Part shown: positions 15,001-63,962 of the stretch, in pieces
Layout: the number at the start of each line of letters is the position of its first letter
Numbering within the stretch: the stretch's first letter is position 1
Assembly: GCA_051883515.1 (NCBI GenBank)
Contig: JBJETW010000014.1
Coordinates: forward strand, 1,345-65,344
DNA: 64,000 nucleotides
Reading direction: 5' to 3'
From: Candidatus Onthoplasma sp.
GTDB lineage: Bacteria > Bacillota > Clostridia > Christensenellales > UBA1242
Translations under genes and position numbers: made by a program
The notes under the pieces: model-generated
What the model was told of the DNA's origin: nothing
The model's input: only the letters and a program-made list of their open reading frames with translations
Databases searched by the model: none

Positions 15001-18000
15001 GTTCGTTCCAGCAATAACACCAAAGTTTATTGTTGCACTTGATGATTTAATAGTCGTTGAATTGCCAACAATTTCAACTGAACAATTTTTAATTGTTCCA
15101 GCATTTTTTCCGGCAATAACACCAAAATCAGCCGATGTTGCTCCTGTTTCTTTACTATTTAGTGTTGCAACCAAATTCAAATTGTAAATTTTAGCGTTTG
15201 TTCCTAATTTTGAAAATAATCCTGCTGTTGAACTTCCGGTGTCAGCAAATCCAACTGTAAATGTGATTGTTTTGTTGTTTCCGTTGAAATCTCCATTGAA
15301 AGCATTGTCAGCAGCCAACATGTTAAAGCCGTCCGCACTTGTAATAGACAAATCTTTCATTAAAATATATTTGTAATTGCCATCAATAAGTTTAAGTTCT
15401 TCCACGCTAGAAATTGTGTACGCTTGATTTATTCCGTCACAAATTGCAATTCCAACCGCATAGAAATTTGAGTATGAGACTTCGCCGTTTTCCAAAGTGG
15501 TTTTTCCGTTGTATGAATCTTTTGCGCACACCAAAAGACGGAAATATCCACCATCTTGTCCGGCATGTGTGATAACATTAAATGTGTATCTTGCTCCAAC
15601 CTTTGTCATATTCACAGTGATTCTGCTTGAATTTGCTGGAATATCTTCATAGATTGTTTCAGTTGCCGTTTCATAAACTTCTTGCAAAACGAATGTCAAG
15701 TCGTCAAAATGTGTTTTTGAAGCGTCGTTGAAATTAGCTTCAATTAAGAACGATTTTTTAACTTCTTCATTTTCTGCTTTTCCAAGATAAGAAAGGTTCA
15801 TTGTATAACTTGCGTCAGAATTTAAATCAAGTTGAGACTTGTCTGACAAAGTAAATCCGTTTGATTTTTCAATTTCCAAAACATTGATTGAAACGCTATC
15901 GCTAATACCACTTTCTAAATCAAATTCTGTTGCTTGCGCCGTCACAATGAAATTTGACACATTTGGTTGCTCATTGAGTTTAAGTGTGTAAGACCACTTG
16001 TTATCCCCAACTTTGCTCGCTTCTGATAATTTCTCATTTAAATCATTTGTCAATTTAATTCCTGTTATTCCAGTTATTTCACCATTTGTGCCAGAATAAG
16101 TTATTGATTGAGTTCCGCCTGTTGTTGTGACTGTGAAAACATTTTCACTGCTTTCATAGAGAAGTGAATTGACATAGCACATTGCTTTCTTTTCAGCAGT
16201 AAGCGTTATACTTTGAATTGGTTGATAAATTCCAATTTCAAAATCTACTTCTTGTGTTCCACTTGTTAAAGTGTTGCTCTCATATTTGTAATATGTTGCT
16301 TTTGCAGTAAGTTTTTGCGATTCATTGCCCGCAGTTGTTGCCAAAAGTGAAAATTCATTGTCAAAAGAAATAATATTTGCTTTTCCTGTTGGTGCTCCAG
16401 TTATTTCCAATGATTGAATTGCGCCTGTTGTGTCGTTTTTAGCGACAACACTGAATGAATAAACCTTGTTTGAAATAGGAAGAGCAAAATTTTGTTTTCC
16501 ATTTTCTATTTCCAATTCTTTTACTCTTGTGTCAGTTGTGTTGATTGACAAAGTTCCCAAATCGTCCGCTGTTGAAATTGATTTCACAGTAAATTGAGAA
16601 TTAAGTCCGAGATTTCCGTCTCCAACAACAACAGAGATTGTGCTAACACTTTGATTTTCTCCACCGACAATTGGCAATAATAATTTATTGTCTGTTAATG
16701 ACGCTCCGTTTGTTATTGCTGTTTGCAAATCAATTTCTTGTTTGCCGTTATTGAAAGTTGCGTCACCATCAATTTTAAATTTAACTGTTGAAGTATCAAG
16801 CGTTCCATTGTAAGAAAGAGTCAATTCAACATTTGTTGCTTTTCCACTTGCAACAAGAACATCGTTATTAACAAAAATGTTCTGCGTTTCGCCCGTGCTA
16901 GGAACGTTAACTTTGTTGTTTAATGTCACTTTGTTGTTAAATTGTATTGTTGTTGACACATAAGTTGCGCCAACTGGAATTCCATTAAACGAATCTGGCA
17001 CAGATTTTGTTTGGAATGTGATGTTTGATGTTGTTGAATCATCTTTAAATCTTACATAAATTGTTGAATTCCTTGCAATTTCACTATTATTTGAAAGTTT
17101 CATTCCGTTTTGTATAACTTCTAAAATATTTGTATCATAAACAAGAATTACTTTTTCACCTTTAGCGTTGTTTACATCAAAAGGAGCCACATCAACACGA
17201 ACCGCTTTCCCTTGATATGTGTCCACTGTTGAATAGATATCTGTTTCAAAATTAATGTTGGCATCAGAAGATGATTTAAGTCCGTCCGCTTCAACCAAAA
17301 CTTGTGTAGGCAAAGTGTGACGCTCAACTGCCTTTTCGATGGAATATTGTGGCAATTGTTCGCCCAAAACCTGCAAACCGCTCAGTTGATACACAACCTT
17401 AAATTGAATTTTTGAATTAACACCCTCTTCAAGTTTGATGGTGAATTTATTTTTTTCTTTTTCAACTGTTAACTCATTGATTTCATCACTAGAAGAATTT
17501 TCGAATTCGCCATTTTCATTTTTAATTAGCAAATCAAAGTTAAATTTTATTATGTCTCCATCTTGATTATATACGCCAACATTATAAATGGACTTAAAAT
17601 CCCCACTTATATTCGCATTAATTGTTGTCTGATTGTAAATTTCGCTGTTGGCGTAAAGTTTTATTGTTCCGTCAGAAATTGTTGTTTCATTTCCGTCATA
17701 TTTCAAAACCAAACTTGCAGTTTGTTTCTTTTCTACTATGTAAACATAGAAACTGGTTGAAAGGTCGTCATTTTCCGTTTCATTTGCGCTTTCTGACAAA
17801 AATTTTGAAGTTGCTTTTATTTTAACCGCATAATTAGTTGACCCTAAATTGAAATTATCACCAACTATAAGATTATTTCCATCAAGCGTGATTTTCCCTA
17901 TTTCAGAATTGTTTTCTGTAAAATTTCCGTCTGAATCAAACGCACCAATAGCCATAATTCCATAATTTACGCCGAATTGATTTGTTTCAAATCCAGGAAC

Positions 18001-18561: not shown

Positions 18562-18650
18562 AACCCCTCACTTTAACATGTGCAAACATTTCATTTTTTT
18601 TCGTCATTTTAATTTTTATTTCGCACACGTAAAATTCTTCAATTAATTTT

Positions 18651-24665: not shown

Positions 24666-27600
24666 TTAATTTGTTGATGTGCAACCAGAAATTGTCACAC
24701 CAGTTTCTTGTTTTCCACCGCAAATTCCAAGCACAAATGTTGGTGAAAGTTGCGTTATATCTAACGAATAATCAGCCATTGAACAATTTAGAATTGATGC
24801 TGTTCCGCTTTCTTTTGTCATTGTTCCAACAATTGCACCAATCTTTATGCTTGAGCTGTCCGTTGTTGCCAAATTGGTTATTGCAAATTCAACTCCATTT
24901 GAACAACTTGAAACAACACAACTCTTTCCGCTTCCCAAAATTCCGCCATAAATTCCAGCAGACAAAGTTGAATATTTTATTGTTCCAGAACTTTGACAAT
25001 CCTGAATGTTTGCATAACTTGCATATCCAACCAATCCGCCAAGATATTGCGTGTTAACATTTTGGAAATCAACTTTCGCACTTGTTGAGAAAACTCCATC
25101 TAAGAGACTTAAACTTGAACCTTCGAAGTTTGCAACAACTCCACCCAAGAAATCCGCATAGGCTCCATTTGTGGTTGTCACTTTCATTGAAATGTTTGTT
25201 GAATTTTTAATGACTGCATTGTTCGCCTTAGCAACAATTCCTGCAAAATATGCATTATTTGAACTTCTTCCGCTGGTTTGAATTTCCACTTCGGCATAAA
25301 CGTCGTCAAAAGTTGTACCGACAGCATTGTCAACCAAACCTGCCACCATCATGTCATATGTTGGAGTGTACGTTCCTGTTTTTGTTATAACGAACTTAGC
25401 ATATACGCTAACTCTGTCAATTTCCGCACTAGTTGCTGACAAAGCAAGCATTGACAATTTGACTTCGCCATCTATTGATAAATTATTGTTTATAACAATA
25501 GGTTTTGAAATTTCCCCAATTGCCAAATCAGCTATCTTTGCTCCACTGCCGATTGAACTGAACACAGCAAAATTCCTTAAATTGCTGAAATTAAATTCAT
25601 CTTGAAGTGCAAAGTATAGTTTGTGTGTTGTTGTATTTTCTTTTCCTGAAAGTTTTCCAGTGAATGTGTTGGTGATTAATCCTGACTGAATGATTTCACT
25701 AACATTCTCAATTTCACTCAAATTTATGTCGCTGATTAATGAATAGTAAGCACTTGGTTTTACGTTTATATTCATAAATTGAGTGGCATTTTTTATCTTA
25801 TACGCACTTGTTTCGCTAGTTCCATCTCCAGATTCAAACAAATTAAATTCTATTGTATCTAGCGTTTCTACAACTGATGACGCCGTTCCTTCTCTTGACA
25901 CCCAGACTTTGAAATTTGAATATGTTCCAATTTGCTTTAAAGTGTAAGTATAAGTGTTGTTTGAATAAGTCAAAACGCCGTAATCAGCTGTTTGATTTGT
26001 ATAGAACGTTGAAGAAGACATGTATCCACTGACAGTCACTGTCTCATTTTTGCTTGTTCCATAAACATCGACATAGTCAATTGTATATTCGACATTAACC
26101 TTGTCGGTTGATAAAAGTTGTTCTCCTTCCCACGTGATTTTATCCACACTATATGCAAGATTTTGTGCACCACTTGGTCTTGACGTTCCTTCTGTTGATT
26201 GCAATGACACGCTATCACTGTTGAACACTTTTGACTTGCCTAATCCAATAGCCGTCACCCTAACTTCAAATTCACCTGAAACGCTGTCAGGAACAGTGTG
26301 AGAATTATTTTCGCTTCCTTCAATAACAATTGTCTCAAATCCAACATATTCAATTTGATATCCGTCAGCGTTTTCATTTTTGTCCCAAACAATTTCTCCA
26401 CCGCTAAATTCCAAGTTCTCCACAGGACTAAGTTTTGACAATGAATTTTCATCTTGAATTGTTGTTGTTTTTGATGAAATCTCAGTGTTTCCAATTGCTT
26501 TTATTGAAATTGAATAAGTTCCAACAATGAAGTTTTCTTGCAATTCGTTTTCAATGTCAAATTGATAGTAGTATTCATCTCCTATTTTTATTTGAGCAAG
26601 TTCGCTCGCTTGAACGGTGTCAGACCATTGTTCACTCGTTTCATTGTTTTTTATTGTTAAATCATAAGCCACGGCATTTGAAATTTGTTTAAATGTAAGT
26701 TTGCCATTATAAGTGAATATTTGTCCTTCTGTTAAACTATCCAATCTTATAACATTATTGATTGTTGTTGGGTCACTTATGATATAATTCCCCAAACTTC
26801 CCGGCATACATGCAACCGAAATTGTATAAATTCTGCCCGCCTCAATTGAATGATATCCAATTGTTTCGCCAGTGATTGGGTCTTTTAAGTCATATGCACT
26901 CTCTAAGAATGTGTAAACATAACATTGCACACCATCAATCGTCATGCTTGCGCCACTTGTCTCAAATTCAATCATTCTCTCAACAGCATAATCGTCTACA
27001 AATGTTATTCTCACCAACGCAGTTGTGTATGCTGAATTGTTAACTGCTTGCCAAACGAGTTTTCCGCCTTTTATTTCAACATTCTTGATGCCTGACGCCT
27101 TTTCAAACTCAAACACATAGTCTACATTATTTTCTTTATAATATGAGCCGTCCAAAATGTTATCGTTTCCAACCGCTCTAACCTTGATATAATAGGTTCC
27201 TTGCGAGTCGATTACTATCGTATTGTTTCCATCTGAAACAGAACTTGGAATTGTGTAAATCAATTTGTTTGTTGTCGTGTTTATTTTAACATTGCTATCT
27301 GCACTTGAAATTTGATAAACGCAACTATTCGTTCCATCGCTCAATGTGATTTCATATGTGTCGCTTGAGCCATAATTTGATGCTTGCGCAAGTTTAAGTT
27401 CCAATCTGTTTGAAGAAATTGCAAACTTGGTCTCTGTCCATTTCTTCACTTCGCTTCCCGCACTAGTGTTGGCCGCATCAATCAAGAAATTGATAACCCC
27501 GTTTGAGTTGTCGCCAATTCCTGCAAGTGTTTTTTCTTCAACTCTGAATGTTCCACTTGGCAAAACTTTGTTGACATCACAAAGCATGTCTGAATCTTTA

Positions 27601-30600
27601 AATTGAACTGGAATGATGTATGGATTTTCTCCTTTTCTTTCTGCAACAATTTCACCCACTGTCAAATTTTCATTATCTATTGAGTGTATTGCATAAACAA
27701 GGAATTTCTCTCCATCTGTTCCATCTGAATTGATTTGTGTAAATTCAAGACGATACACTGGACTATCTGCGTTTTCTCCGTTCTCATCATAAACTCGCAT
27801 ATCTTCCAATTTAATCATTCCGTTAGAGACGGTCACGCTTGACATATTTTGATATCTCACAAAAGCGTGTAATTCTTCACTCTTTGCATTTAAATATCCT
27901 GCAAATCCGTCACTAACTGAGCCAGACACATTTCCGCCAAGCAAATAAACTCGAGTCAACAAATATGAGTCTTCATTAAGTGAAAGTTCCTTTTCTCCAT
28001 CTTTAGAATATATGATTTCTCCATTTTCGATTGTCGCAGTTATCGCACTATAATAAATCTCATTCAAATTGAAATCAATTTTGTTTTCATTAAACACATT
28101 AAATTCAAGTTCTCCACATTTAACCGTGTAAACCAAATTGCCTTTGTTTGTTTGAGTTATATAATCCACACCTTCAACAAAACTATCAGTATTTGCGTTT
28201 TTGTAATCAATAAAACTATAATAATCGACACAATAAATTTCAGTATCATTAATTGAAACTTTATATATTGCAGTAGATTTTATGAAATCTGTGGTCACTC
28301 CATTAAATGCATAATTTAAATTAACATCAATAATTTTGTCGCCATCTCCATCATAAATGCTTGGCACATTAAATGACAACACGCCAGCAACAACTTGATT
28401 TACATTTGAAGCAAGTTGATTTACTGTCAAATTTTTGAATCCCATCTCTGTTGGATTCGAATTTATTATTCCTATTGTTGTGTCACCGAGCACAATGCTT
28501 TGTGTTCCAAGAAGTGTTATCTTTATTGAATAATTATTTGGATTTATATTTAACCCTGTCTTATCTATATTTATAAAGTATACATCTTGTTTTGATATTT
28601 CTTCATTTAAATTTAAAAGCGTGTCAACAAGATTGTCTTGCATTTCATTAAGTCTAGCTTCCAATTTTTCTGAATTGTCCATAATGAAAATCTGACCATC
28701 ATTTGTTTCAAATATCGCCTTGTTGAAATAGACACTAGATGTCATAACAAGATATCCATTTTTAATTGTTAAATCAGTTGGCTCAGGAATTCTAAACGCC
28801 ATAACCTCATCTGAAACATCGCTATTAATCACATTCGCTTTTGTTGATTTTGCTTTGATTGAAACATTGATTATTCCTGTCAAATCTTTAAATTTTGGTG
28901 TTGTGAAATCATATTGCATAAATTGAGTGGTTGTTGTCACAATGCTGTCAGTTCCTTCTTGTCCAGAAACTAAAATTTGATAAGAGGTTGAATTTTCATT
29001 TGTTTCCCAAATCAAAACTCCATTTTCAATTTCAACAATTGGTTTTTCCATTTTTAAAACGCTAAGCATGTTGTTTTGGTCTGAATAATTTGAGACACAT
29101 AACAATCCGCTGTCCGCGTTTGTGTCGAGCGGAATTGTTTTGATGTAAATTTCAAATTTTCCACTTTCAAACACAATGCCGTTTTCTCCAAGCGTTCCAT
29201 CTTCAGCAATATCATAACCATATGGGAAGAAAATACTGTTAGAAGTGATAAAAGCTGTGTCAGAAATTGACAATATATTTCCTTCGCTATCTTTATATTT
29301 CAATTTAGGGTCAGAAGAATAATATGAGGTGCCATTTTGCAAATAATCAAATCTCACAACATATCCAACATCATATTTATTACCATTTGAATCAACATTC
29401 TTTGGATTGTTATCCCAAACAATTTTTTGTAAATTGTCGTTAGTTGTGTCTGAAACTTTTTTCAAGTTCACTGCCGTAAACAATCCTTTTGCTTGTTTTG
29501 TTAGAGTTTTTGAGTTCAAAACAAACAAATTTTCTTGCGCGTGATAATCCAAAACATAAGTGAATTCAACATTTTCAATAATTGGACTTGATGCAGGATA
29601 TCTAAGAATTGTTGTCGCATCAATATTAACTTTCCCTTCTAGCACATATCCTTTTAAGTCTATTGTGTTTTCCAAACTGCCGTTTTTGATGAACAATGAA
29701 ATGCTATCTTCTTCTGTTGCAGATGCAATCAAATCTTTGATTGCTTGAGAAAGCGTGACAACAAAATTTCCTTCCTTTATTGCAACAACTGGTTGATTTG
29801 AGCGTTTTACGCTGATTTTTTGTGATTTGTTTGAATTTGTAAAGTGCAAATTTTGGTCATCTGAAATTGCTTTGACAGTGATTTCTGCTGTCCCATCAAT
29901 ATCAGACAAATCAAATTCATTTTTATCTGTGGTGAAGATTGTCTTTTCCCCAGATTTCGTTATTTCAATTTCATAGTAAATTGCATTTTCAACTTCATCA
30001 AAATAGAGTTTGTCGTCCAACACGAGTATGTTGCTTGGAGTTTCCAGTTTTTCAAATATCAATTCTTCTGAAATTTTTGAGTCAACAATATATTTTCCGT
30101 CTGCAGTGTATTCACTTGTTGAATACACAACAACTTTAACACTTATTTCACTTTCATCTTGGCAATTGTCTAATTTATATTCAATCTTTTCGTCATCTGC
30201 TATATCACTTGCCAAGTACACATATTCTTGATTGTTAATTTGAAGCAAATATTCAATTGGTTCTGAAACTTCTGTTTCAATTTTGTTGAATGAAACAACA
30301 ACTGAATTATTTTCTAAACTATTGTCTTTGCTTGCTTCAAGAGCAACAGTATTTAATCTAACAAAATTTATTAATCCACTTTTTTGTGTTAAATTTCCAT
30401 CTGTTGAAACAAAGTAAGAAATTGTCTCTGTCTCAGGATATCTATCCATTATTTCGCTCAACTTAATTTGAATTTTGTTGTTGTTTAAACTCAAATCAAA
30501 ATTGTCTTCTGAATTGTCATTTCCCCACAATTTCACTTTTGTTGATTGAGAATTTTCATTCAAAAGAAGATAATAATTTCCCTTTGTCCAAGTGTCGCTT

Positions 30601-33425
30601 CCTTCAACATTTTCAATTTTTAACAATTGATTTTCCGCAGTGATTGAGCCAACATTTGAGAAAGATAAATTTTCACTCTGTTCATCACTTGAAACAATAT
30701 AATCATTGTCTGAAACAAATTGAATTGTGATTTCAATATCCCCTGAATGTGTGCCTAAAACGAAATTGTAAGACTCGTCAAACACGTAAACATTATGTGT
30801 CTTTAAATCTTCGTCGTAAACATAATCTAGTTCAACGTCATTGTCAGCGTCCTTTAAAACGCCGTCATCAAATTTGAAATTATATTGATTTCCATCAAAC
30901 GATATTTTCAAAATAAAGTCATAACGCTCCAAATGATTTTCGTTTGAAATGACAATAGCTCTGTCACTTGCCACAATTTGCGAATTGCTGTGAATTTTAT
31001 AAACACTCAAAGGTTCTGATTTAGACGAAATATAGAAATTTGTTCCGTCATTATCTATCGCCGTTGCATTCAAAATAAACACATTTTCGCCATCGTTGAA
31101 GTCATTGTATGCAGTTGCAAAATCATAAGCGACAATTTCTTCCACATCAGAAACTTTCACAAAATCCAAAACTGAAACATTTTCAGGTTCAACTTTCGTG
31201 AATTTGCTTGTTTGTTTGTCAAAGTCAAGAACTGGTTGTTCAAGTTTTGAAATTGTTAAATTTTCAAGAACTTTAGAGTCGAGATTTGTTTTTCCATCGC
31301 CAATATTTTGAATACTTAAATTCGTTGTTTCTCCATAGTCTAAATCAATTACGCAACTTGTTGAAGAAGTTTTTGTTGCATTAATTGAATTAAACTGCGT
31401 GTTGGTTTGACCAACGTTTACAACACTCAACGCACCATTCGATTTATCAAAACTTTCAATTGTTGGAGCCGACAAAACGTTAAATTCTATTTCATACGCT
31501 GGACACACCATCATAGCATCATCAATCATCTCTCGATAATCAAAGACGGTTGTGTTGTTATCCTTTGATTTTAAGTAAATTTTTGCAGTATGTTCTCCTG
31601 AGGATAAATACGTTTCAGTGTCCAAATCGTCAGTTGTATTTAATTCAATTGAATTGCCATCAAAGTTCAAACTCTCAATTTGAACATTAACATTTGCCTT
31701 TTCACTTGCAACAATCGATAAAATTCCGTTTTCAATCTTTACATCTTCTTGGTTAAGTTTCCCAAGTTGAACAAATGTTATAATTTCTGTTTTGCTAGCG
31801 ATTTCAAATTCGTCATTTCCTAAATGTGTCACTTGAATAGAATGTTCCCCAGCGCTGAAATCAACATTTGAAACATCAAGCACGAAAAGTTCGCTTTCCA
31901 AAGTCACCACTTGTTTTTCATCATCAATGCAAATCTCAAACTCTTCTAAAGTCTCGTCTTGAATCGTAAGTTTATAATTTTCAAAATTAAGATTTGGTGC
32001 TGTTTGTTTTTTGAATGTGTGCGACACATAGTTTGAAGAAACACAATTAATCCCGTTTTTTGCAACCGATTTAATTGAGAAATTCACCACCGCTCCATTG
32101 TCATAATCGTCAAGAGAAAAGTAGTTTTCGGTTGTATTAAACTCGCGTTTATTTCCATCAACTTCAATCGAAATTGCATAGAATCCAGCATTTTCAACCG
32201 CATTCCAAGTTATTTTATCTCGGTCCGCAACAATATTTGCATGCTCAATTTTGGTGAATTCAAGTTCTGAAACAATGTTAGAATTTGCAAGATTGTTTAC
32301 GCCTTGTGGGAAAACCGGTGTCACTTGTGCTGAATAAGAAACGCCATCTAAAATTTTGTTTTCATAGTCTAAAATAGATGCAAGGTCAAAATTGTTTGAT
32401 GTTGTGTTAAAAATGTCATCTCCAAGTTTAATCTCATATTCATTTACATATTGAATTTTTGGCCAAGACAATGTTGTTCCATTCAATAAAATGTTAAGAC
32501 CAGGAATAACATCAACTTCCGTTTCAACAATGCTCGTTTGACAAACAACGCCAGTTTGTTCCATTAGTGTTTTTGACTCAGAATTAAGTCTTGTTGTGAT
32601 TTTTACTTTAACTTTTTTACCAGCAAAAGACTTGTCTAAATTCAAAAGTGAACAAGATTGTGAGTCAATGCCAGTTGCCAAAACCTGCTCAGATATTTCA
32701 TCGTAAACCGACACATCAAACACTGCATCATTCCCAGCATAGTCAAAAGTTAAATTTCCGTTTTTAACATTGATATTTTTTACTTCGCTAGGTTTATAAA
32801 TTTTTGTTTCGTTTGAATAGTCAGACACTAAATAAGCTTTTTCAAATTCTGCTGGATATGCTCTAACTCTAACCTTCAAAATTTGGTCCAAATAATCAAA
32901 ATCAAAATTTTTAAGTTCAAAAATTGTTGCATTGCCAATGTCAATTGGATTTTCAAAATTGTTGTTTACAATCAATTCAAATCCGTAAACATTTGTCATG
33001 TTGGTTGACTCAATAACAAACGCTTGTTTAGTTTCGTCAAATTTAATTTCTGGAGTTGTCAACTCAATTTGACTTTCAATTACAACAACATTTATCGTGT
33101 CTTGCTTTGATTCGTCCATATTTGAAACGACTTGCAAAACTGAATTCCCCACTTCCTTTGCCTTAACAACATTTCCGTTCACTTCCAACACATTACTGTT
33201 CCAGCTTGTTAAGGTGTAAGTCTTGTTTGTTGCGTAAGATGGAGTTATCACAACATAGTCTTCCAATTCAAAAGTTTGCCCTGAACACAAAACAATCTGT
33301 TTGTTGTCTGGAATGTCAAAATAGATGTCTTCCACTATAACTTCATTTTTACAACCAGCCAAACAAAAGACAATGAATGTCAGAAAGAACCATGCTATTA
33401 TGTTTGCCTTTTTAAATTTTGACAT
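24666..33425 (-). CDS. 2,919-aa surface lipoprotein: lipobox, Big_2-like domain, many FN3-like modules, C-terminal GLUG-type repeat region
   Basis: MSKFKKANIIAWFFLTFIVFCLAGC carries lipobox LAGC. There is a recurrent module signature [LI]xWxxVxNAxxYxI (ITWNAVENAGFYAISIEV, LVWQAVNNSAYTTALV, IVWDKNENADGYQIEY, LIWETNENSTSYQILV, LYFDEVENAIYYEIEI, LTFKQISNAVAYDLTI). The last roughly 500 aa hold FAGIVA, LGGVVA, LGGLVGYA, YGGILGSG and IGAIVGT repeats. Confidence 0.9.
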   Translation of the reverse strand: MSKFKKANIIAWFFLTFIVFCLAGCKNEVIVEDIYFDIPDNKQIVLCSGQTFELEDYVVITPSYATNKTYTLTSWNSNVLEVNGNVVKAKEVGNSVLQVVSNMDESKQDTINVVVIESQIELTTPEIKFDETKQAFVIESTNMTNVYGFELIVNNNFENPIDIGNATIFELKNFDFDYLDQILKVRVRAYPAEFEKAYLVSDYSNETKIYKPSEVKNINVKNGNLTFDYAGNDAVFDVSVYDEISEQVLATGIDSQSCSLLNLDKSFAGKKVKVKITTRLNSESKTLMEQTGVVCQTSIVETEVDVIPGLNILLNGTTLSWPKIQYVNEYEIKLGDDIFNTTSNNFDLASILDYENKILDGVSYSAQVTPVFPQGVNNLANSNIVSELEFTKIEHANIVADRDKITWNAVENAGFYAISIEVDGNKREFNTTENYFSLDDYDNGAVVNFSIKSVAKNGINCVSSNYVSHTFKKQTAPNLNFENYKLTIQDETLEEFEICIDDEKQVVTLESELFVLDVSNVDFSAGEHSIQVTHLGNDEFEIASKTEIITFVQLGKLNQEDVKIENGILSIVASEKANVNVQIESLNFDGNSIELNTTDDLDTETYLSSGEHTAKIYLKSKDNNTTVFDYREMIDDAMMVCPAYEIEFNVLSAPTIESFDKSNGALSVVNVGQTNTQFNSINATKTSSTSCVIDLDYGETTNLSIQNIGDGKTNLDSKVLENLTISKLEQPVLDFDKQTSKFTKVEPENVSVLDFVKVSDVEEIVAYDFATAYNDFNDGENVFILNATAIDNDGTNFYISSKSEPLSVYKIHSNSQIVASDRAIVISNENHLERYDFILKISFDGNQYNFKFDDGVLKDADNDVELDYVYDEDLKTHNVYVFDESYNFVLGTHSGDIEITIQFVSDNDYIVSSDEQSENLSFSNVGSITAENQLLKIENVEGSDTWTKGNYYLLLNENSQSTKVKLWGNDNSEDNFDLSLNNNKIQIKLSEIMDRYPETETISYFVSTDGNLTQKSGLINFVRLNTVALEASKDNSLENNSVVVSFNKIETEVSEPIEYLLQINNQEYVYLASDIADDEKIEYKLDNCQDESEISVKVVVYSTSEYTADGKYIVDSKISEELIFEKLETPSNILVLDDKLYFDEVENAIYYEIEITKSGEKTIFTTDKNEFDLSDIDGTAEITVKAISDDQNLHFTNSNKSQKISVKRSNQPVVAIKEGNFVVTLSQAIKDLIASATEEDSISLFIKNGSLENTIDLKGYVLEGKVNIDATTILRYPASSPIIENVEFTYVLDYHAQENLFVLNSKTLTKQAKGLFTAVNLKKVSDTTNDNLQKIVWDNNPKNVDSNGNKYDVGYVVRFDYLQNGTSYYSSDPKLKYKDSEGNILSISDTAFITSNSIFFPYGYDIAEDGTLGENGIVFESGKFEIYIKTIPLDTNADSGLLCVSNYSDQNNMLSVLKMEKPIVEIENGVLIWETNENSTSYQILVSGQEGTDSIVTTTTQFMQYDFTTPKFKDLTGIINVSIKAKSTKANVINSDVSDEVMAFRIPEPTDLTIKNGYLVMTSSVYFNKAIFETNDGQIFIMDNSEKLEARLNEMQDNLVDTLLNLNEEISKQDVYFINIDKTGLNINPNNYSIKITLLGTQSIVLGDTTIGIINSNPTEMGFKNLTVNQLASNVNQVVAGVLSFNVPSIYDGDGDKIIDVNLNYAFNGVTTDFIKSTAIYKVSINDTEIYCVDYYSFIDYKNANTDSFVEGVDYITQTNKGNLVYTVKCGELEFNVFNENKIDFNLNEIYYSAITATIENGEIIYSKDGEKELSLNEDSYLLTRVYLLGGNVSGSVSDGFAGYLNAKSEELHAFVRYQNMSSVTVSNGMIKLEDMRVYDENGENADSPVYRLEFTQINSDGTDGEKFLVYAIHSIDNENLTVGEIVAERKGENPYIIPVQFKDSDMLCDVNKVLPSGTFRVEEKTLAGIGDNSNGVINFLIDAANTSAGSEVKKWTETKFAISSNRLELKLAQASNYGSSDTYEITLSDGTNSCVYQISSADSNVKINTTTNKLIYTIPSSVSDGNNTIVIDSQGTYYIKVRAVGNDNILDGSYYKENNVDYVFEFEKASGIKNVEIKGGKLVWQAVNNSAYTTALVRITFVDDYAVERMIEFETSGASMTIDGVQCYVYTFLESAYDLKDPITGETIGYHSIEAGRIYTISVACMPGSLGNYIISDPTTINNVIRLDSLTEGQIFTYNGKLTFKQISNAVAYDLTIKNNETSEQWSDTVQASELAQIKIGDEYYYQFDIENELQENFIVGTYSISIKAIGNTEISSKTTTIQDENSLSKLSPVENLEFSGGEIVWDKNENADGYQIEYVGFETIVIEGSENNSHTVPDSVSGEFEVRVTAIGLGKSKVFNSDSVSLQSTEGTSRPSGAQNLAYSVDKITWEGEQLLSTDKVNVEYTIDYVDVYGTSKNETVTVSGYMSSSTFYTNQTADYGVLTYSNNTYTYTLKQIGTYSNFKVWVSREGTASSVVETLDTIEFNLFESGDGTSETSAYKIKNATQFMNINVKPSAYYSLISDINLSEIENVSEIIQSGLITNTFTGKLSGKENTTTHKLYFALQDEFNFSNLRNFAVFSSIGSGAKIADLAIGEISKPIVINNNLSIDGEVKLSMLALSATSAEIDRVSVYAKFVITKTGTYTPTYDMMVAGLVDNAVGTTFDDVYAEVEIQTSGRSSNNAYFAGIVAKANNAVIKNSTNISMKVTTTNGAYADFLGGVVANFEGSSLSLLDGVFSTSAKVDFQNVNTQYLGGLVGYASYANIQDCQSSGTIKYSTLSAGIYGGILGSGKSCVVSSCSNGVEFAITNLATTDSSSIKIGAIVGTMTKESGTASILNCSMADYSLDITQLSPTFVLGICGGKQETGVTISGCTSTN

Positions 33426-59828: not shown

Positions 59829-61058
59829 TTATTTTAGTATAACTTTTAAAAATATCTTTTTACCTTTCTTTACCACGAATTCTTTTTTGTTGATATCAAT
59901 TTTGTTATTAAGATCTACAATTCTTTCACCATCTACTAAAATTCCATTTTGGTCCACCAATCTTCGGATTTCTGATTTTGAATTAAAAATGTTTAATTTT
60001 GACAAAAAATCAATCACTTTTACATCTTTTTCAATGGATATTTCTTGTGTTGGCATATTTTCACTTTTGTTATTTCCTCCAAAAAGTTGTTCACTCGTGA
60101 GTTGTGCTTTTAATGCTTCTTCTTCGCCGTGAACAAGTTTTGTCACTTCAAAAGCCATCAATTTTTTTGCTTTAACAATATCTTCTTCACACATTTTTTT
60201 AATTTCTTTAGCATCAATTTTTGTGAAGAATTTTAACAATCGTTCAACATCTGCATCTAAGCAATTAATGAAATGTTGAAAAAATTCAAATGAAGATGTG
60301 TTATCTCTATTAACCCATAATGTACCTTTCTCAGTTTTGCCCATCTTAACTCCATCTGCGTTTGTAAGCAATGGACATGTCAACCCCATCATGACCGGCC
60401 TTTGAGTTCCATCTCTAAAATTCATTTTCCTGCTCAACTCAGTTCCCGCAACAATGTTCCCCCATTGGTCGGAACCACCAATTTGTAAAATACAATTAAA
60501 TTTATCATTTAGGTGGACGAAATCAAATGCCTGCATTAACATGTATCCCATTTCCATAAAGGTTAATCCACCTCTTTTAAGCCTGTTTTTGTATAAATCT
60601 TTTTTGAGCATTTCACTTATATTAAAATGAATTCCAACTTCTCTTAAAAAATCAATATAGCTTATAGAATTCAACCAATCAGCATTATCAACGATAATAG
60701 CCGGATTGTCTCCGTCCAAAGCAATAAATCTTTTGAGAATTCCTTTTATCTCTTTTGCATTCTTTTCAACTTCTTTTTTTGATAACATTTTTCTAATGTC
60801 TTTTTTACCACTTGGGTCACCAATTAAAGCAGTTGCTCCACCAACAAGAATTATGCACTTATGTCCACAATCTTGTAAAATTCTTGCCATCTGCAATCCA
60901 AAAAAATGACCTATATGCAAATCGTCAGCGGTTGGGTCTATTCCAAGATAAAATGTAATTGAGCCTCTTTTTAATGCATTTTTTATTTCTTCTAAATTTG
61001 TTGCTTGAAAAACAAAACCTCTGTTTTCCAATTGTTCAAACGCGTTGCTTTTAAACAT
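59829..61058 (-). CDS. tyrS: Tyrosine--tRNA ligase
   Basis: HIGH motif (DDLHIGHF), KMSKS motif (KMGKT), and a C-terminal S4-like domain. RBS is AAAGGAG. Confidence 0.95.
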   Translation of the reverse strand: MFKSNAFEQLENRGFVFQATNLEEIKNALKRGSITFYLGIDPTADDLHIGHFFGLQMARILQDCGHKCIILVGGATALIGDPSGKKDIRKMLSKKEVEKNAKEIKGILKRFIALDGDNPAIIVDNADWLNSISYIDFLREVGIHFNISEMLKKDLYKNRLKRGGLTFMEMGYMLMQAFDFVHLNDKFNCILQIGGSDQWGNIVAGTELSRKMNFRDGTQRPVMMGLTCPLLTNADGVKMGKTEKGTLWVNRDNTSSFEFFQHFINCLDADVERLLKFFTKIDAKEIKKMCEEDIVKAKKLMAFEVTKLVHGEEEALKAQLTSEQLFGGNNKSENMPTQEISIEKDVKVIDFLSKLNIFNSKSEIRRLVDQNGILVDGERIVDLNNKIDINKKEFVVKKGKKIFLKVILK

Positions 61059-61092
61059 ATATTTTCTCCTTTTTTATTTTAACATATTTTGC

Positions 61093-61146
61093 TTATTTCC
61101 CCAATACAACGCCCGAAAGGGCGTATATTTTTATTATAAATCTCAT
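61093..61146 (-). other. 17-codon sORF with strong RBS in the tyrS-proximal leader, containing a GC hairpin
   Basis: AGGAG lies 7 nt upstream. Hand translation gives MRFIIKIYALSGVVLGK, ending at TAA. It encloses ACGCCC-UUUC-GGGCGU (61109..61124). Confidence 0.25.
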
Positions 61147-61201
61147 AAATTTACTCCTAAATATAAAACTTTTTCTCAATTAAAATTTTTTAATATTAAA
61201 G

Positions 61202-61278
61202 AAAAAATCTGTCAACGTTTAATGCGACAGATTTTGAAATAAAAACTGCCACATAGTTTGAATCGCTATATGACAGAT
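61202..61278 (-). terminator. Two consecutive terminator-like hairpins in the tyrS upstream region
   Basis: T1: CUGUCAUAUAG (61276..61266) pairs with CUAUGUGGCAG (61256..61246; 11 bp including two G-U pairs), followed by UUUUUAUUU. T2: AAAAUCUGUC pairs with GACAGAUUUU (61203..61236 region), followed by UUC. Both left arms share AUCUGUC. Confidence 0.55.
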
Positions 61279-61323
61279 GTTTAATATGATACTTTACACA
61301 CAAATACTCCTACATACAGCAAT

Positions 61324-61368
61324 CTAAATGTAGTAGCAATAATATGAAATTTGTGTAAATGTTTTCAT
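61324..61368 (-). promoter_or_regulatory. 14-codon Tyr-rich leader ORF upstream of tyrS (candidate attenuation leader peptide)
   Basis: Hand translation gives ATG AAA ACA TTT ACA CAA ATT TCA TAT TAT TGC TAC TAC ATT TAG, i.e. MKTFTQISYYCYYI. AGGAG lies 7 nt upstream. It sits about 25 nt downstream of a perfect consensus promoter. Confidence 0.5.
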
Positions 61369-61393
61369 TAAATTTCTCCTATAATTATTTGTG

Positions 61394-61422
61394 ATTATAT
61401 TTCAAATTATAAAAAATGTCAA
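61394..61422 (-). promoter_or_regulatory. Perfect-consensus sigma-A promoter driving the Tyr-rich leader ORF
   Basis: Minus strand reads TTGACA (61422..61417), exactly 17 nt of spacer, then TATAAT (61399..61394). Confidence 0.6.
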
Positions 61423-61459
61423 CACATTCATTCGAAAAAACTTGTCGTTTTTTTATAAA

Positions 61460-61942
61460 CTAAATTTGCTTAAAAACTGTTATCATTCTATCAGTGTAGC
61501 CGTTTTTATAATAAAACTTCTTTGCTGTTTCATTATAAGCAAAAACATCAATTTGCACGAACTCACAATTGATAAATTTGAAATAGTCTTCCATTGTCTT
61601 TAACAGCATCGAGCCAACACCAATTTTTCTTATTCCTTTTTTTACAATAAGTTCGGATACTATTCCCTTTTTAGGACATGTATAATCTAGACTATCGCGT
61701 TCGTCATACGCTTGTATGTGTCCAGCAATAAAACCCACAACTTCACCATCGTCCATCGCAACAAAAATTTTCCCTTCATTATTTTTACAATCATCAAACA
61801 TGAATTCAAAATATTTTTTTCTATAATCTTTTGACATTATATTAAGGTTGAATTTGTCAATTTCAATAATATACTTTTGCAAATCTACTAATAAATCTTT
61901 TACGCTTTCAAAATGTATATTACTCATCTCTTCAATTTCCAT
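61460..61942 (-). CDS. GNAT-family N-acetyltransferase
   Basis: The acetyl-CoA-binding region is LIVKKGIRKIGVGSMLLKTMEDY, followed by AKKFYYKNGY. RBS is GGAG. Confidence 0.8.
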   Translation of the reverse strand: MEIEEMSNIHFESVKDLLVDLQKYIIEIDKFNLNIMSKDYRKKYFEFMFDDCKNNEGKIFVAMDDGEVVGFIAGHIQAYDERDSLDYTCPKKGIVSELIVKKGIRKIGVGSMLLKTMEDYFKFINCEFVQIDVFAYNETAKKFYYKNGYTDRMITVFKQI

Positions 61943-62034
61943 AAATTCTCCATATTGTATTCTTTATAAACAGGAATACTTCAAAATTAAATTAACAAAG
62001 TAATCAACTATAAACAAAATGCTATTAAAATAAT

Positions 62035-62109
62035 TGGCGTCCCCTGCGAGAATCGAACTCACAATTAGACCTTAGGAGGGTCTCGTTATATCCATTTAAC
62101 TAAGGGAAC
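62035..62109 (-). tRNA. tRNA-Arg (anticodon CCT), CCA encoded
   Basis: The 75-nt cloverleaf was folded by hand. Acceptor GTTCCCT/AGGGGAC; D arm GTTA/TAAC; anticodon arm AGACC-CTCCTAA-GGTCT; T arm GTGAG-TTCGATT-CTCGC; discriminator G followed by CCA. Confidence 0.9.
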
Positions 62110-62139
62110 ATATGATTTTATTGGATTTATTTAAATTGA

Positions 62140-62168
62140 TTATATGTCATATTTTGGGTTAATACAAG
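62140..62168 (-). promoter_or_regulatory. Promoter candidate for tRNA-Arg
   Basis: Minus strand reads TTGTAT (62168..62163), a 17-nt spacer, then TATAAT (62145..62140), about 30 nt upstream of the tRNA 5' end. Confidence 0.45.
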
Positions 62169-62373
62169 AAAATAGAATAAAAAAATCTTACTACTTTTTA
62201 ATTTTATCAAATTAATCTTAAATGTCAAGGAAATATTTAATTGTAGTTTTGATGTGGGTTTTCAATCACCGCAATTGCTATTCTTCTTTTAATTTCGTTA
62301 TTATATTCCTTGTTAAAATTTAATTCTTTACGTTTTTTGTCAATAATTGAAGTGAAAGCAGTCTGCTTTTTGC

Positions 62374-62402
62374 TTGACAAATAAATTACATTATCTTAAA
62401 AT
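62374..62402 (+). promoter_or_regulatory. Promoter candidate for the pheS leader
   Basis: TTGACA (62374..62379), a 17-nt spacer, then TAAAAT (62397..62402). Confidence 0.5.
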
Positions 62403-62439
62403 AATTTTATCTTAACAAAAACGTTGACAATGTGTGCAG

Positions 62440-62911
62440 TAGTAAATTTGTTCCATAAAGAGAGAACGTCCTTGGTTGAGAGATGTTTATGTTCAGCAAA
62501 TTTATGAATTTCAGCATTCGAGTTGCTTTTTGGAAAAGGTAGAGCCTAATCTCTTCCGCTAAGAAAAGCCAGACAAAACTGTAAAAATGAAATGAGGTCA
62601 AAACAATCCGCGTTTTAAACAAACGCTATAGGTCAAGTTGCAAACAATAATCCGTGAGATAATTTATCGGAACTGAAAGAATAAGCAACCGACCAAAGAG
62701 TCTATAATTGCGAGTTAATCGAGCAATTTGACAAAAGGGAGTGTTGCGTTTTCTAGGGCTCCCATGAGACTTGTCGTCGAATGGGAAGGAGGAGCAACCG
62801 ACCAAAAGGTCTATAATTGCGAGTTTATCGAGCAATTTGACAAAAGGGAGTGTTGCGACGACATAGGTGGTACCACGAACAAACTCGTCCTATGATTTGG
62901 GCGAGTTTTTT
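62440..62911 (+). ncRNA. T-box riboswitch leader of pheS(T), unusually long
   Basis: The T-box sequence AGGTGGTACCACG is at 62865..62877; its UGGU can pair with the ACCA end of tRNA-Phe. Antiterminator helix CATAGG (62862..62867) pairs with CCTATG (62889..62894). This competes with the terminator CTCGTCC (62884..62890) / GGGCGAG (62899..62905), which is followed by T6. The 5' part begins AAAGAGAGAACG...GGTTGAGAGATG. A candidate specifier UUC-A lies at 62510..62513, but I could not fold Stem I with confidence. Confidence 0.8.
62651..62868 (+). repeat. Tandem duplication (period 109 nt) inside the pheS leader
   Basis: The 65-nt cores at 62684..62748 and 62793..62857 are identical at 62 of 65 positions by hand alignment. 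The flanks are more diverged but alignable: TCCGTGAGA... versus TCCCATGAGA... upstream, and CTAGGGCTCCCATGA versus CATAGGTGGTACCACGA downstream. Confidence 0.85.
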
Positions 62912-62939
62912 GTTAATGTGAAAAAGAAAAGGAGAAAAT

Positions 62940-63962
62940 ATGCAAGATAGAATAAATGAAATTTTAAATTACACAAGAGAAAAAGTTGAGCAAGCGAAAA
63001 CAAGTGCGGAATGTCAAACTTTGAGAGTGGAAATACTTGGGAAAAACGGAAAATTGACTGAAATGTTCCGCTTTATGAAAGATGTTCCAGCAAATGAAAA
63101 GCAAGCGATGGGACAACTTTTAAACACTGCAAAACAAAATGCTGAATCAATGATTTCCGCAAAAGAAAAATTCCTTTCAGACAACGAATTGAATGAAAAA
63201 CTTATGAAAGAGAAAATTGATGTCACTTTAGATAAAGGTGATGAAGAAATTGGTGCACTTCACCCTGTGACAATTGATTTCATTCGTATGGGCGAAATTT
63301 TGACCGGCATGGGATTTTCTCAAATTGATGGACCAGAAATTGAATGGGATAAGTATAACTTTGAACTTGTAAACGTTCCAAAAGACCACCCAAGCAGAGA
63401 CATGCAAGATAGTTTGTACATCACAAACGACATTCTTTTAAGAACACAAACATCAAACACTCAACCAAGAGCAATGGAAAAAATTAAACCACCTTTCAAA
63501 GTGTTTAGTTTCGGGAGAGTTTTCAGAAAAGATGAAATTGACGCCACACACACTCCTGCTTTCCATCAACTCGAAGGAATTTATATTGACAAAAAAGTGT
63601 CACTTGCTGACTTAAAACATGACTTAACAATAATGCTTCAAAAATATTTAGGAGAAGACACAAAAACAAAATTTAGAGCATCATTCTTCCCTTTCACAGA
63701 GCCAAGTGTGGAAGTTGACGCTGAATGCAATGTGTGCAAAGGAAAAGGTTGTCCAGCATGCAAAGGTGCAGGACAATATGAAATTCTTGGTGCAGGAATG
63801 ATTCACCCAAGAGTTTTGGAATTGAACGGAATTGACCCAAATGAATATTCAGGATACGCGTTCGGACTTGGTTTTGACCGCTTCCCAAAAATGAGATATA
63901 AAATTCCTAACGCAAAAGTTATGTTCGAAAATGATATTCGTTTCATCAAACAATTTAAGTAA
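62940..63962 (+). CDS. pheS: Phenylalanine--tRNA ligase alpha subunit
   Basis: Class II motifs are present (HPSRDMQDSLY, FRKDEIDATHTPAFHQLEG, GFGLGFDR). RBS is AAAGGAG. pheT presumably starts just beyond the window. Confidence 0.95.
   Translation: MQDRINEILNYTREKVEQAKTSAECQTLRVEILGKNGKLTEMFRFMKDVPANEKQAMGQLLNTAKQNAESMISAKEKFLSDNELNEKLMKEKIDVTLDKGDEEIGALHPVTIDFIRMGEILTGMGFSQIDGPEIEWDKYNFELVNVPKDHPSRDMQDSLYITNDILLRTQTSNTQPRAMEKIKPPFKVFSFGRVFRKDEIDATHTPAFHQLEGIYIDKKVSLADLKHDLTIMLQKYLGEDTKTKFRASFFPFTEPSVEVDAECNVCKGKGCPACKGAGQYEILGAGMIHPRVLELNGIDPNEYSGYAFGLGFDRFPKMRYKIPNAKVMFENDIRFIKQFK

Follow-up and report, generated by a model that had tools for sequence, protein, structure and literature searches.

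A probable leader-peptide attenuator with two linked terminators upstream of tyrS in uncultured gut Clostridia

The stretch of DNA analyzed here, 64,000 nucleotides (nt) of a Candidatus Onthoplasma sp. contig (JBJETW010000014.1) and referred to below as the window, carries on its minus strand the tyrosyl-tRNA synthetase gene tyrS, preceded by an RNA leader that is very likely a ribosome-mediated transcription attenuator. As we read its sequence, the leader would sense charged tRNA-Tyr and set the level of read-through from an upstream promoter, P1, into tyrS. All the features of a classical attenuator that can be read from sequence are present: an open reading frame (ORF) led by a Shine-Dalgarno (SD) sequence, cognate codons within it, a terminator, an antiterminator, a geometry allowing the ribosome to mask one strand of the latter, and a 1:2 hairpin. 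A first-pass annotation of this DNA had proposed that ribosome stalling on Tyr codons controls read-through into tyrS and had derived no convincing antiterminator pairing. We found that the missing element is the pairing GCUGUAUG:CAUAUAGC, which is mutually exclusive with the first terminator. Conservation, this antiterminator, the geometry of the leader and natural codon swaps in sister leaders all argue for the proposal.

The elements of the leader, in the order of transcription, are as follows.

61422..61417 and 61399..61394, minus strand: promoter P1, TTGACA and TATAAT separated by a 17-nt spacer, matching the consensus at 12 of 12 positions.
61380..61376, minus strand: SD sequence of the small ORF sORF1, AGGAG, 7 nt from the ATG.
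61368..61324, minus strand: sORF1, 14 codons, encoding the leader peptide MKTFTQISYYCYYI and ending at a stop codon.
61361..61349, minus strand: 5' strand of helix P0, CAUUUACACAAAU, in codons 3-7 of sORF1; its partner lies at 61305..61292.
61344..61330, minus strand: regulatory codon run UAU UAU UGC UAC UAC (Tyr Tyr Cys Tyr Tyr).
61336..61328, minus strand: region 1, CUACUACAU, comprising the last Tyr codons and forming with region 2b the 1:2 protector or pause hairpin.
61320..61307, minus strand: region 2, beginning 3 nt past the sORF1 stop codon.
61320..61313, minus strand: antiterminator strand of region 2, GCUGUAUG, whose partner CAUAUAGC lies at 61272..61265.
61315..61307, minus strand: partner of region 1, AUGUAGGAG, part of region 2.
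61305..61292, minus strand: 3' strand of helix P0, AUUUGUGUGUAAAG.
61276..61237, minus strand: terminator T1, with its stem at 61276..61246 and the U-run UUUUUAUUU at 61245..61237.
61276..61265 and 61256..61246, minus strand: the arms of T1, region 3 (CUGUCAUAUAGC) and region 4 (CUAUGUGGCAG).
61232..61201, minus strand: terminator T2, with its stem at 61232..61207, then UUUUUU to 61201.
61232..61224 and 61213..61207, minus strand: the arms of T2, region 5 (AUCUGUCGC) and region 6 (GACAGAU).
61071..61066, minus strand: SD sequence of tyrS, AAGGAG.
61058..59829, minus strand: tyrS, 409 amino acids.

The promoter, the AGGAG, sORF1, the region 1 pairing, T1 and T2 all lie where the first-pass annotation had placed them. 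P1 is the sole 12/12 promoter match within the 2.1 kb scanned, and a near-consensus TTGACW-17-TATAAT is found at the equivalent site in most related loci with sufficient upstream sequence. Outside a long ORF on the opposite strand, sORF1 is the only SD-preceded small ORF of the 64-kb window with at least four identical residues in six; the window contains no further Tyr-run ORF and no further T1-like motif. The 341-nt tyrS leader folds with a z-score of -4.9 relative to shuffles, and the predicted folding energies of T1 and T2 are -12.6 and -10.7 kcal/mol, respectively. Both terminators were missed by a consensus terminator scan because their loops are longer than 8 nt. The tyrS product itself matches NCBIfam TIGR00234 at 387 bits, for a cut-off of 113.8.

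One can envision the following sequence of events. With Tyr-tRNA plentiful, the ribosome would read the 14 codons of sORF1 to the stop and there cover GCUGUAUG, 3 nt beyond; region 3 would be free to pair with region 4, T1 would form and transcription would end, any polymerase escaping T1 being met by T2. With Tyr-tRNA scarce, the ribosome would stall on the Tyr codons, holding region 1 and freeing region 2 to pair with the emerging region 3 as the antiterminator. Region 4, thus left unpaired, would be available to region 5, the 5' arm of T2; neither terminator would form and transcription would continue into tyrS. If the leader were not translated at all, the long hairpin made of P0 and the 1:2 helix would hold region 2 and favor termination. 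A probable weak second promoter close to the gene (P2, described below) would supply basal tyrS expression, and the attenuator would add to it an inducible component from the strong P1.

The leader is conserved among related species. A survey limited to one genome per species returned 42 tyrS loci, 37 of them with a TyrS at least 70% identical (70-79% among the related loci). The Tyr leader lies upstream of tyrS in 32 of the 37; four are cut by contig ends, and one (L007) lacks sORF1, T1 and T2, making 32 of 33 among loci with enough upstream sequence. The loci come from uncultured Clostridia of the gut that carry the labels Ca. Onthoplasma, Caccosoma, Caccovivens or Christensenellales. Alignment of related upstream regions, a check suggested by the first-pass annotation, found sORF1, its Tyr run and both hairpins kept in 32 further species, together with the SD sequence, ATG, frame and stop of sORF1. 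Across the resulting 32-sequence alignment (A1), the SD sequence is purine-rich, mostly AAGGAG or AGGAG, and equally spaced. sORF1 is 15 codons long in 31 standard-form loci, 14 in the window and 17 in L041; its consensus in the relatives is MKNLFAxxSYYYYYI followed by a stop. Insertions and deletions in sORF1 occur in multiples of 3 only, and its Tyr codons undergo synonymous UAU/UAC changes. Most relatives have five consecutive Tyr codons, and the window has four Tyr in five positions. The U-runs after T1 and after T2 are both conserved.

Two of these loci have peculiarities of their own. No other close tyrS locus lacks sORF1, T1 and T2 as L007 (2700..3000) does; L007 retains the downstream hairpin H3 and the promoter-like motif discussed below, and in it another terminator-like hairpin, AUUGCCG-AUAA-CGGCAAU, may have an alternative pairing partner upstream. 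In L006, tyrS contains an in-frame TGA (3199..3201) where the 96%-identical gene of L052 has TGT (Cys), which is probably an assembly error or the mark of a pseudogene.

To compare the two conformations, pairs were counted per alignment cell over the 32 aligned leaders. The terminating conformation has 94% of its cells paired (84% for the 1:2 helix, 98.4% for T1, 98.7% for T2) and 10 pairs changed on both sides; the antiterminating conformation has 99.4% paired (100% for the 2:3 helix, 98.6% for the 4:5 helix) and four such double-sided changes. In slid controls the paired fraction was 18-54% for the terminating conformation and 20-54% for 2:3 and 4:5 together, and for either form none of 500 shuffles reached the observed number of double-sided changes. 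Of the 12 pairs modelled for T1, 11 form in the window; three pairs of the helix show double changes among the 32 sequences. The 2:3 helix (alignment columns 68-75 with columns 131-138) carries a compensatory G-C pair in L023 and L040, and region 4 is altered there too. The first-pass annotation had also remarked on an AUCUGUC shared by the left arms of T1 and T2. The repeat is indeed present, and the reason for it is that pairing is required between the 3' arm of T1 and the 5' arm of T2. In the window this 4:5 helix joins GUGGCAG to CUGUCGC (duplex energy -11.0 kcal/mol); three of its pairs have changed on both sides, and T1 and T2 have changed in concert in L008 (CUACCA/UGGUAG) and L026 (CCGCCA/UGGCGG). 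The pairing would act as a relay, and opening T1 would thereby disable T2 too.

The upstream pairings are maintained in the same manner. The 1:2 pairing shows a double-sided change in L032, CUGG...ACAU with AUGU..CCAG. The outer helix P0 joins codons 3-7 of sORF1 to the spacer past region 2; its duplex has z < -2 in 27 of the 32 sequences (mean z = -3.4) and covaries as GCAAA/UUUGC, ACACUAA/UUAGUGU, CGCA/UGCG and ACAAGCAA/UUGCUUGU. The N-terminal part of the sORF1 peptide varies and its RNA pairing is kept. The L032 tyrS leader (2664..2730) is also unusual in its peptide, MTTILTSNLYYWWTY, which has two Trp codons in place of Tyr codons; a matching change in region 2, AUGUUCCAG, keeps the 1:2 pairing.

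The position of sORF1 relative to these helices is that expected of an attenuator. Region 2 begins 0-4 nt past the stop codon in all aligned sequences. Folding with and without a ribosome, another check suggested by the first-pass annotation, was carried out with the ribosome simulated as a 31-nt mask. When the RNA extended up to region 3, the antiterminator formed in none of the 32 sequences if the ribosome stood at the stop codon or the sense codon before it, and in 30-32 if its A site lay on codons -3 to -6, within the Tyr run. When the RNA extended through T1, a ribosome at the stop codon was accompanied by T1 in 32/32. The co-transcriptional comparison, made with RNA up to region 3, is the informative one, and the masked folding fits classical attenuation. 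Equilibrium folding of the whole leader was rejected as a test since it does not discriminate between the two states, and the decision must therefore be kinetic. The same holds for classical E. coli attenuators such as trp.

Further evidence comes from sister leaders with other codon runs, which were found by a pattern scan of metagenomes and follow-up look-ups. In L046, L047 and L048, regions 2-4 are nearly identical to those of the Tyr scaffold, and the leader peptides, MKKFIALNICCCCCYI or MNKIIALNICCCCCYI (of the form M..ICCCCCYI, then a stop), contain five Cys codons. These leaders stand directly before cysS, with one terminator, no further elements and no other promoter-like element. A different Cys leader, MNKLCCCQ followed by a stop, precedes cysS in L050 (1..172) with a 12-base-pair (bp) antiterminator and a terminator of its own. 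It is unrelated to the others; low-GC gut bacteria have therefore evolved Cys-codon control of cysS on more than one occasion. A GC-rich cysS locus, L049, had no leader.

Threonine and asparagine versions share the architecture of the Tyr leader and differ from it in sequence. Contigs L006 and L051-L054 carry the Tyr leader and tyrS, and their next gene has a promoter and an sORF1 of its own (MKNAVVSQLNITTTTILF, then a stop), two arm-sharing terminators and then a second ORF; the 4:5 relay of this Thr leader comprises 9-10 bp at -17.1 kcal/mol. The gene behind it encodes a 482-residue threonine-tRNA ligase (L052 7597..9045), an identity taken from the cluster member on a longer contig, as L006 and L051 end before the gene. 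The L052 protein scores 411.9 bits against a cut-off of 484 for NF003068 and 288.7 bits against 383.65 for TIGR00418. It aligns only to positions 144-612 of the 613 in NF003068, lacking the N-terminal ~140 residues, which we take to be the site of the editing domain in such enzymes. Among the Asn leaders, with runs of 6-7 codons, that of L005 (..NNNNNN..) precedes an aspartate-tRNA(Asn) ligase gene (2904..4630; NF003483 at 423 bits, above the cut-off), that of L026 (MFRFINNNNNNNSNTF, then a stop) precedes asnA (PF03590, 327 bits), and that of L032 (MKFLLNNNNNNNLNT, then a stop), with two relay-linked terminators and a second ORF, precedes an unannotated gene. The Asn relay has an energy of -10.2 kcal/mol; the 4:5 pairing thus recurs in Thr and Asn leaders despite their unrelated sequences. 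The presence of an Asn leader before a ligase of the non-discriminating type in L005 suggests that the supply of Asn-tRNA is sensed on the indirect, transamidation route.

The codon run thus agrees with the downstream gene in its amino acid in four cases (Tyr, Cys, Thr and Asn). Expression apart, these natural swaps would seem to provide the result wanted from a designed codon-swap experiment.

The leader contains a second module between T2 and tyrS, followed by the candidate proximal promoter.

61158..61154, minus strand: SD sequence of a second small ORF (SD2), AGGAG.
61146..61093, minus strand: sORF2, encoding MRFIIKIYALSGVVLGK and ending at a stop codon.
61124..61109, minus strand: hairpin H3, ACGCCC-UUUC-GGGCGU, inside sORF2 and abutting the Tyr codon UAC at 61125..61123.
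61104..61099 and 61084..61076, minus strand: likely proximal promoter P2, TTGGGG, a 14-nt spacer and the extended -10 element TGTTAAAAT, read from sequence only.

The SD sequence, ATG and frame of sORF2 are conserved in 32/32 sequences, with indels in multiples of 3 only; its C-terminal part and stop position vary. An in-frame Tyr codon sits exactly at the 5' base of H3 (TAC in 22, TAT in 10 of the 32), and its third position covaries with the partner as C-G, U-A or U-G. H3 has a folding z < -2 in 30 of the 32 sequences. At the base of H3 the Thr leader has the codon ACC and the Asn leaders have AAU, the latter followed by GCC..GGGCG as in the Tyr version; a rough reckoning from codon frequencies puts the chance of a cognate match in three families at ~1e-4. 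H3 has no U-run, and no alternative pairing partner for it was identified. Neither the cysS leaders nor the L005 tyrS leader has this second stage, which is therefore an add-on rather than part of the core switch. sORF2 and H3 probably add a second codon-specific checkpoint. We suggest, with low confidence, that a ribosome stalled at the H3 codon might keep H3 open or shield the RNA, preventing an H3-dependent loss of the message.

Other roles for H3 were considered and rejected: a third intrinsic terminator, because a U-run is absent after it; a DNA operator, because complementarity is kept while sequence and loop length (4-9 nt) vary; and, as a general reading, the reverse-strand terminator flagged by a terminator scan. 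It is the Lys codons of sORF2 that give the opposite strand its T-run, which in the Thr and Asn leaders is separated from the stem by 6-9 nt. What is conserved in the stage, namely the SD sequence, the ATG and a cognate codon in frame, belongs to the sense strand; the terminal U-G pairs of H3 are weak evidence as to strand. In the window, a weak promoter-like TTCAAA-17-TATATT lies antisense to the start of tyrS (61035..61134, plus strand), and the H3 palindrome with its T-run could define an antisense RNA of about 60 nt, an arrangement that the Thr and Asn leaders do not generally share.

A number of observations weigh against control of tyrS by attenuation. The Tyr run of the window contains only four Tyr codons and is interrupted by Cys. 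The leader shows little covariation, a consequence of its core helices being almost invariant. With the RNA extended through T1 and the A site on codons -4 to -5, T1 is still the minimum-energy structure in 19-20 of the 32 sequences, and the window's own RNA, when unmasked, favors the antiterminator. Moreover, a TGnTAnAAT motif occurs 4-8 nt upstream of the tyrS SD sequence in roughly three quarters of tyrS loci (about 20 exact and a few near matches). With an extended -10 element conserved at this place, tyrS need not depend on read-through from P1, and P2 is the main support for the view that it does not. We regard P2 as probably a weak, -35-poor promoter giving basal expression of an essential gene. 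A final objection concerns the host. Coupling-dependent attenuation is reportedly considered disfavored in Bacillota. Members such as B. subtilis are described, in a passage of PMC7858274 that cites Johnson 2020, as uncoupling transcription from translation, which would work against ribosome-mediated attenuation unless polymerase pausing compensates.

Taken further, the case for P2 would make sORF1 with T1 and T2 a separate, always-terminating gene for a Tyr-rich micropeptide or small RNA, with tyrS transcribed from P2 only and the adjacency a matter of synteny. The conserved extended -10 element, the two terminators in a row after sORF1 and the L007 locus, in which H3, P2 and tyrS exist without stage 1, are what one would predict from such an arrangement. 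However, the amino acid of the run tracks the gene (Tyr with tyrS, Cys with cysS, Thr with thrS, Asn with aspartate-tRNA(Asn) ligase or asnA), and a conserved antiterminator overlapping T1 and a relay overlapping T2 would be useless to a gene that simply terminates. The variable N-terminal peptide with its retained RNA pairing is likewise at odds with it, as are the leaders of cysS and that of tyrS in L005, which pass from a single terminator into the SD sequence of the gene with no H3, no sORF2 and no clear promoter motif in between. We consider a separate gene very improbable, and sORF1 as a free-standing peptide gene was rejected on the codon-to-gene correspondence. Slightly less improbable is that tyrS is controlled mainly through stage 2, or through stability or processing of the message, T1 and T2 merely insulating the gene from the strong P1. 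Such a role would suit the conservation of sORF2 and H3, which equals that of stage 1, the presence of a cognate codon in three versions (Tyr, Thr, Asn), and the retention of H3 alone in L007. It sits poorly with the lack of a U-run or identified alternative partner for H3, with the existence of cysS leaders and an L005 tyrS leader that have the stage 1 switch and no H3, and with the fact that transcripts from P2 would not contain H3 at all.

It is also conceivable that the same hairpins are switched without translation, the UAY triplets being read by a TRAP-like protein or, as in a T-box, by the anticodon of tRNA-Tyr. Firmicutes usually use T-boxes or RNA-binding proteins in this position (PMC1262725, PMC2965389), and the Tyr run does form a tandem triplet repeat within a hairpin strand. 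On the other hand, the SD sequence, the AUG, the open frame and a stop 0-4 nt before region 2 are kept in 32/32 sequences, length changes respect the triplet frame, and the UAU/UAC exchanges are synonymous; T-box elements are not detectable, and the four amino-acid versions would require four binding proteins. Of all the alternatives this one strikes us as the most improbable. Ribosome-mediated attenuation, with stalling and read-through as we infer them, best accommodates the ensemble of the data.

The absence of a T-box was ascertained in several ways. At gathering thresholds, Rfam returned a tRNA alone from the whole window. A permissive scan (E<=10) spanning 60900..63100, and thus the tyrS and pheS leaders, gave no T-box match (RF00230) upstream of tyrS (60900..61500), upholding the claim of the first-pass annotation on this point. 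No T-box match was found in nine related tyrS loci at E<=1, nor in outgroup tyrS, cysS and thrS loci at E<=0.1. The hallmarks of the element (stem I with its specifier loop, a GGUGGUACC-type sequence and the antiterminator bulge) were not detected by the covariance model upstream of tyrS. No curated Rfam leader or attenuator family came near its gathering score in the tyrS leader, and Rfam 15 holds no family matching this or the sister leaders. Weak matches to the trpB motif (21.8 bits versus 59, E = 5.2), freshwater-2 (20 bits versus 49.9) and mir-4012 were dismissed as chance-level.

By contrast, pheS in the same window has GGTGGTACC. Its T-box region, on the plus strand (62374..62939), is long, about 530 nt, and includes the T-box sequence AGGTGGTACCACG (62865..62877), a terminator (62881..62908) and a probable specifier, UUC, at 62510..62512. 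The first-pass annotation had called this T-box canonical. The T-box sequence and the terminator bear this out; the Rfam scores (60.6 and 23.7 bits in the same permissive scan that drew a blank at tyrS) do not, as neither reaches the gathering score, 93. Accompanying the low score is a 79-nt direct repeat inside the leader (62670..62748 and 62779..62857, 89% identical).

As for the surroundings, a tRNA-Arg(CCU) (62035..62109, minus strand) lies directly upstream of a GNAT acetyltransferase gene (61460..61942) whose end lies 38 nt upstream of P1. The G+C content of the window is 33.5%, and SpoIIE is encoded in it. The window also contains a giant ORF of more than 6189 codons (1..18567, minus strand), which runs off the start of the window, and a second long ORF of 2919 codons (24666..33425, minus strand); both probably encode very large surface proteins.

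The mechanism is of a known kind, here on a new gene and in a new lineage as a two-stage, two-terminator variant, and is not a new principle. Literature searches turned up no described Tyr leader for tyrS, no tandem-terminator relay and no second ORF module. It is tempting to go further, although we give the idea somewhat less than an even chance, and to see in these leaders a modular two-stage family spread through a lineage of uncultured gut Clostridia. Stage 1 would be a codon run with relayed terminators, and stage 2 a single cognate codon at a GC hairpin without a U-run, an undescribed kind of sensor; codon swaps would have reprogrammed the whole for Tyr, Cys, Thr and Asn, its Thr and Asn forms being rebuilt with different sequence, at several synthetase genes where T-boxes are usual, in a phylum in which runaway transcription is reported to disfavor attenuation coupled to the ribosome. 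These leaders bear on whether coupling of transcription and translation in Bacillota is too weak for attenuation; the tandem terminators, the extended pause hairpin and the additional small ORF might have evolved to offset such weakness. They also offer a natural codon-swap set ready for testing codon-specific sensing by ribosomes. For annotation, small ORFs and hairpins of this type, being absent from Rfam, will escape detection or be miscalled in metagenome-assembled gut genomes by the thousand.

The closest mechanistic parallels are the E. coli attenuators pheM-pheST, trpL, pheL and hisL. They share with the Tyr leader a short SD-led ORF rich in the cognate codon, the 1:2, 2:3 and 3:4 pairings and an intrinsic terminator, with the position of the ribosome deciding between them; in pheM-pheST the leader ORF even lies upstream of an aminoacyl-tRNA synthetase operon. 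They belong to Proteobacteria, however, and have no sequence similarity to the Tyr leader, which has no Rfam match. The Tyr leader resides in low-GC Clostridia, would respond to a different amino acid (Tyr) before a different gene (tyrS), and has two terminators linked by a 4:5 relay, a second ORF with a cognate codon at the side of a hairpin and a probable extra promoter. Leader-peptide attenuation is known or predicted for E. coli pheST and for Streptomyces trpS2 and leuS (PMC1262725). Another predicted case, based on comparative genomics only, is uORFC-8-2 upstream of cysS in Rhodobacterales (Brewer et al. 2021, PMC8632094). It too has tandem cognate (Cys) codons within a stem, followed by a terminator, before a synthetase gene. 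In contrast to our leaders it is alphaproteobacterial, has two Cys codons and a single stage, and is unrelated in sequence; the cysS leaders of L046-L048 are homologous to the tyrS leader of the window and not to uORFC-8-2.

Within Firmicutes, leader-peptide control has been shown for the S. aureus ilv operon, which has a Leu-rich attenuator peptide (PMC5794164), and a His leader peptide has been predicted before a hisS paralogue and hisZ in bacilli (Naville and Gautheret 2010, PMC2965389). The hisS case, like ours, replaces a T-box. Both concern other amino acids and genes, have a single terminator and no second ORF, and give no evidence of one scaffold codon-swapped for several synthetases. 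A 2005 survey knew of no Firmicutes aminoacyl-tRNA synthetase gene under classical attenuation (PMC1262725), and only the predicted His leader has been reported in such genes since then (PMC2965389).

The tyrS gene of B. subtilis is the founding example of T-box control. The replacement of the T-box at this gene is well supported here, and it is unexpected in a phylum where coupling-dependent attenuation is considered disfavored; pheS of this clade retains a T-box. The gene is the same in the two systems, and so, as we read the leader, are the signal (tRNA-Tyr charging) and the output (terminator or antiterminator); in both, a codon would set the specificity and could be changed to reprogram it. 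In the T-box, however, uncharged tRNA is read directly, through the specifier loop and the T-box sequence, with no ribosome involved; the defining elements of that device are not detected at tyrS here and persist at pheS in the same window. Together, leader peptide and T-box would make a clean example, provided by nature, of regulatory turnover, with one signal read by either of two mechanisms.

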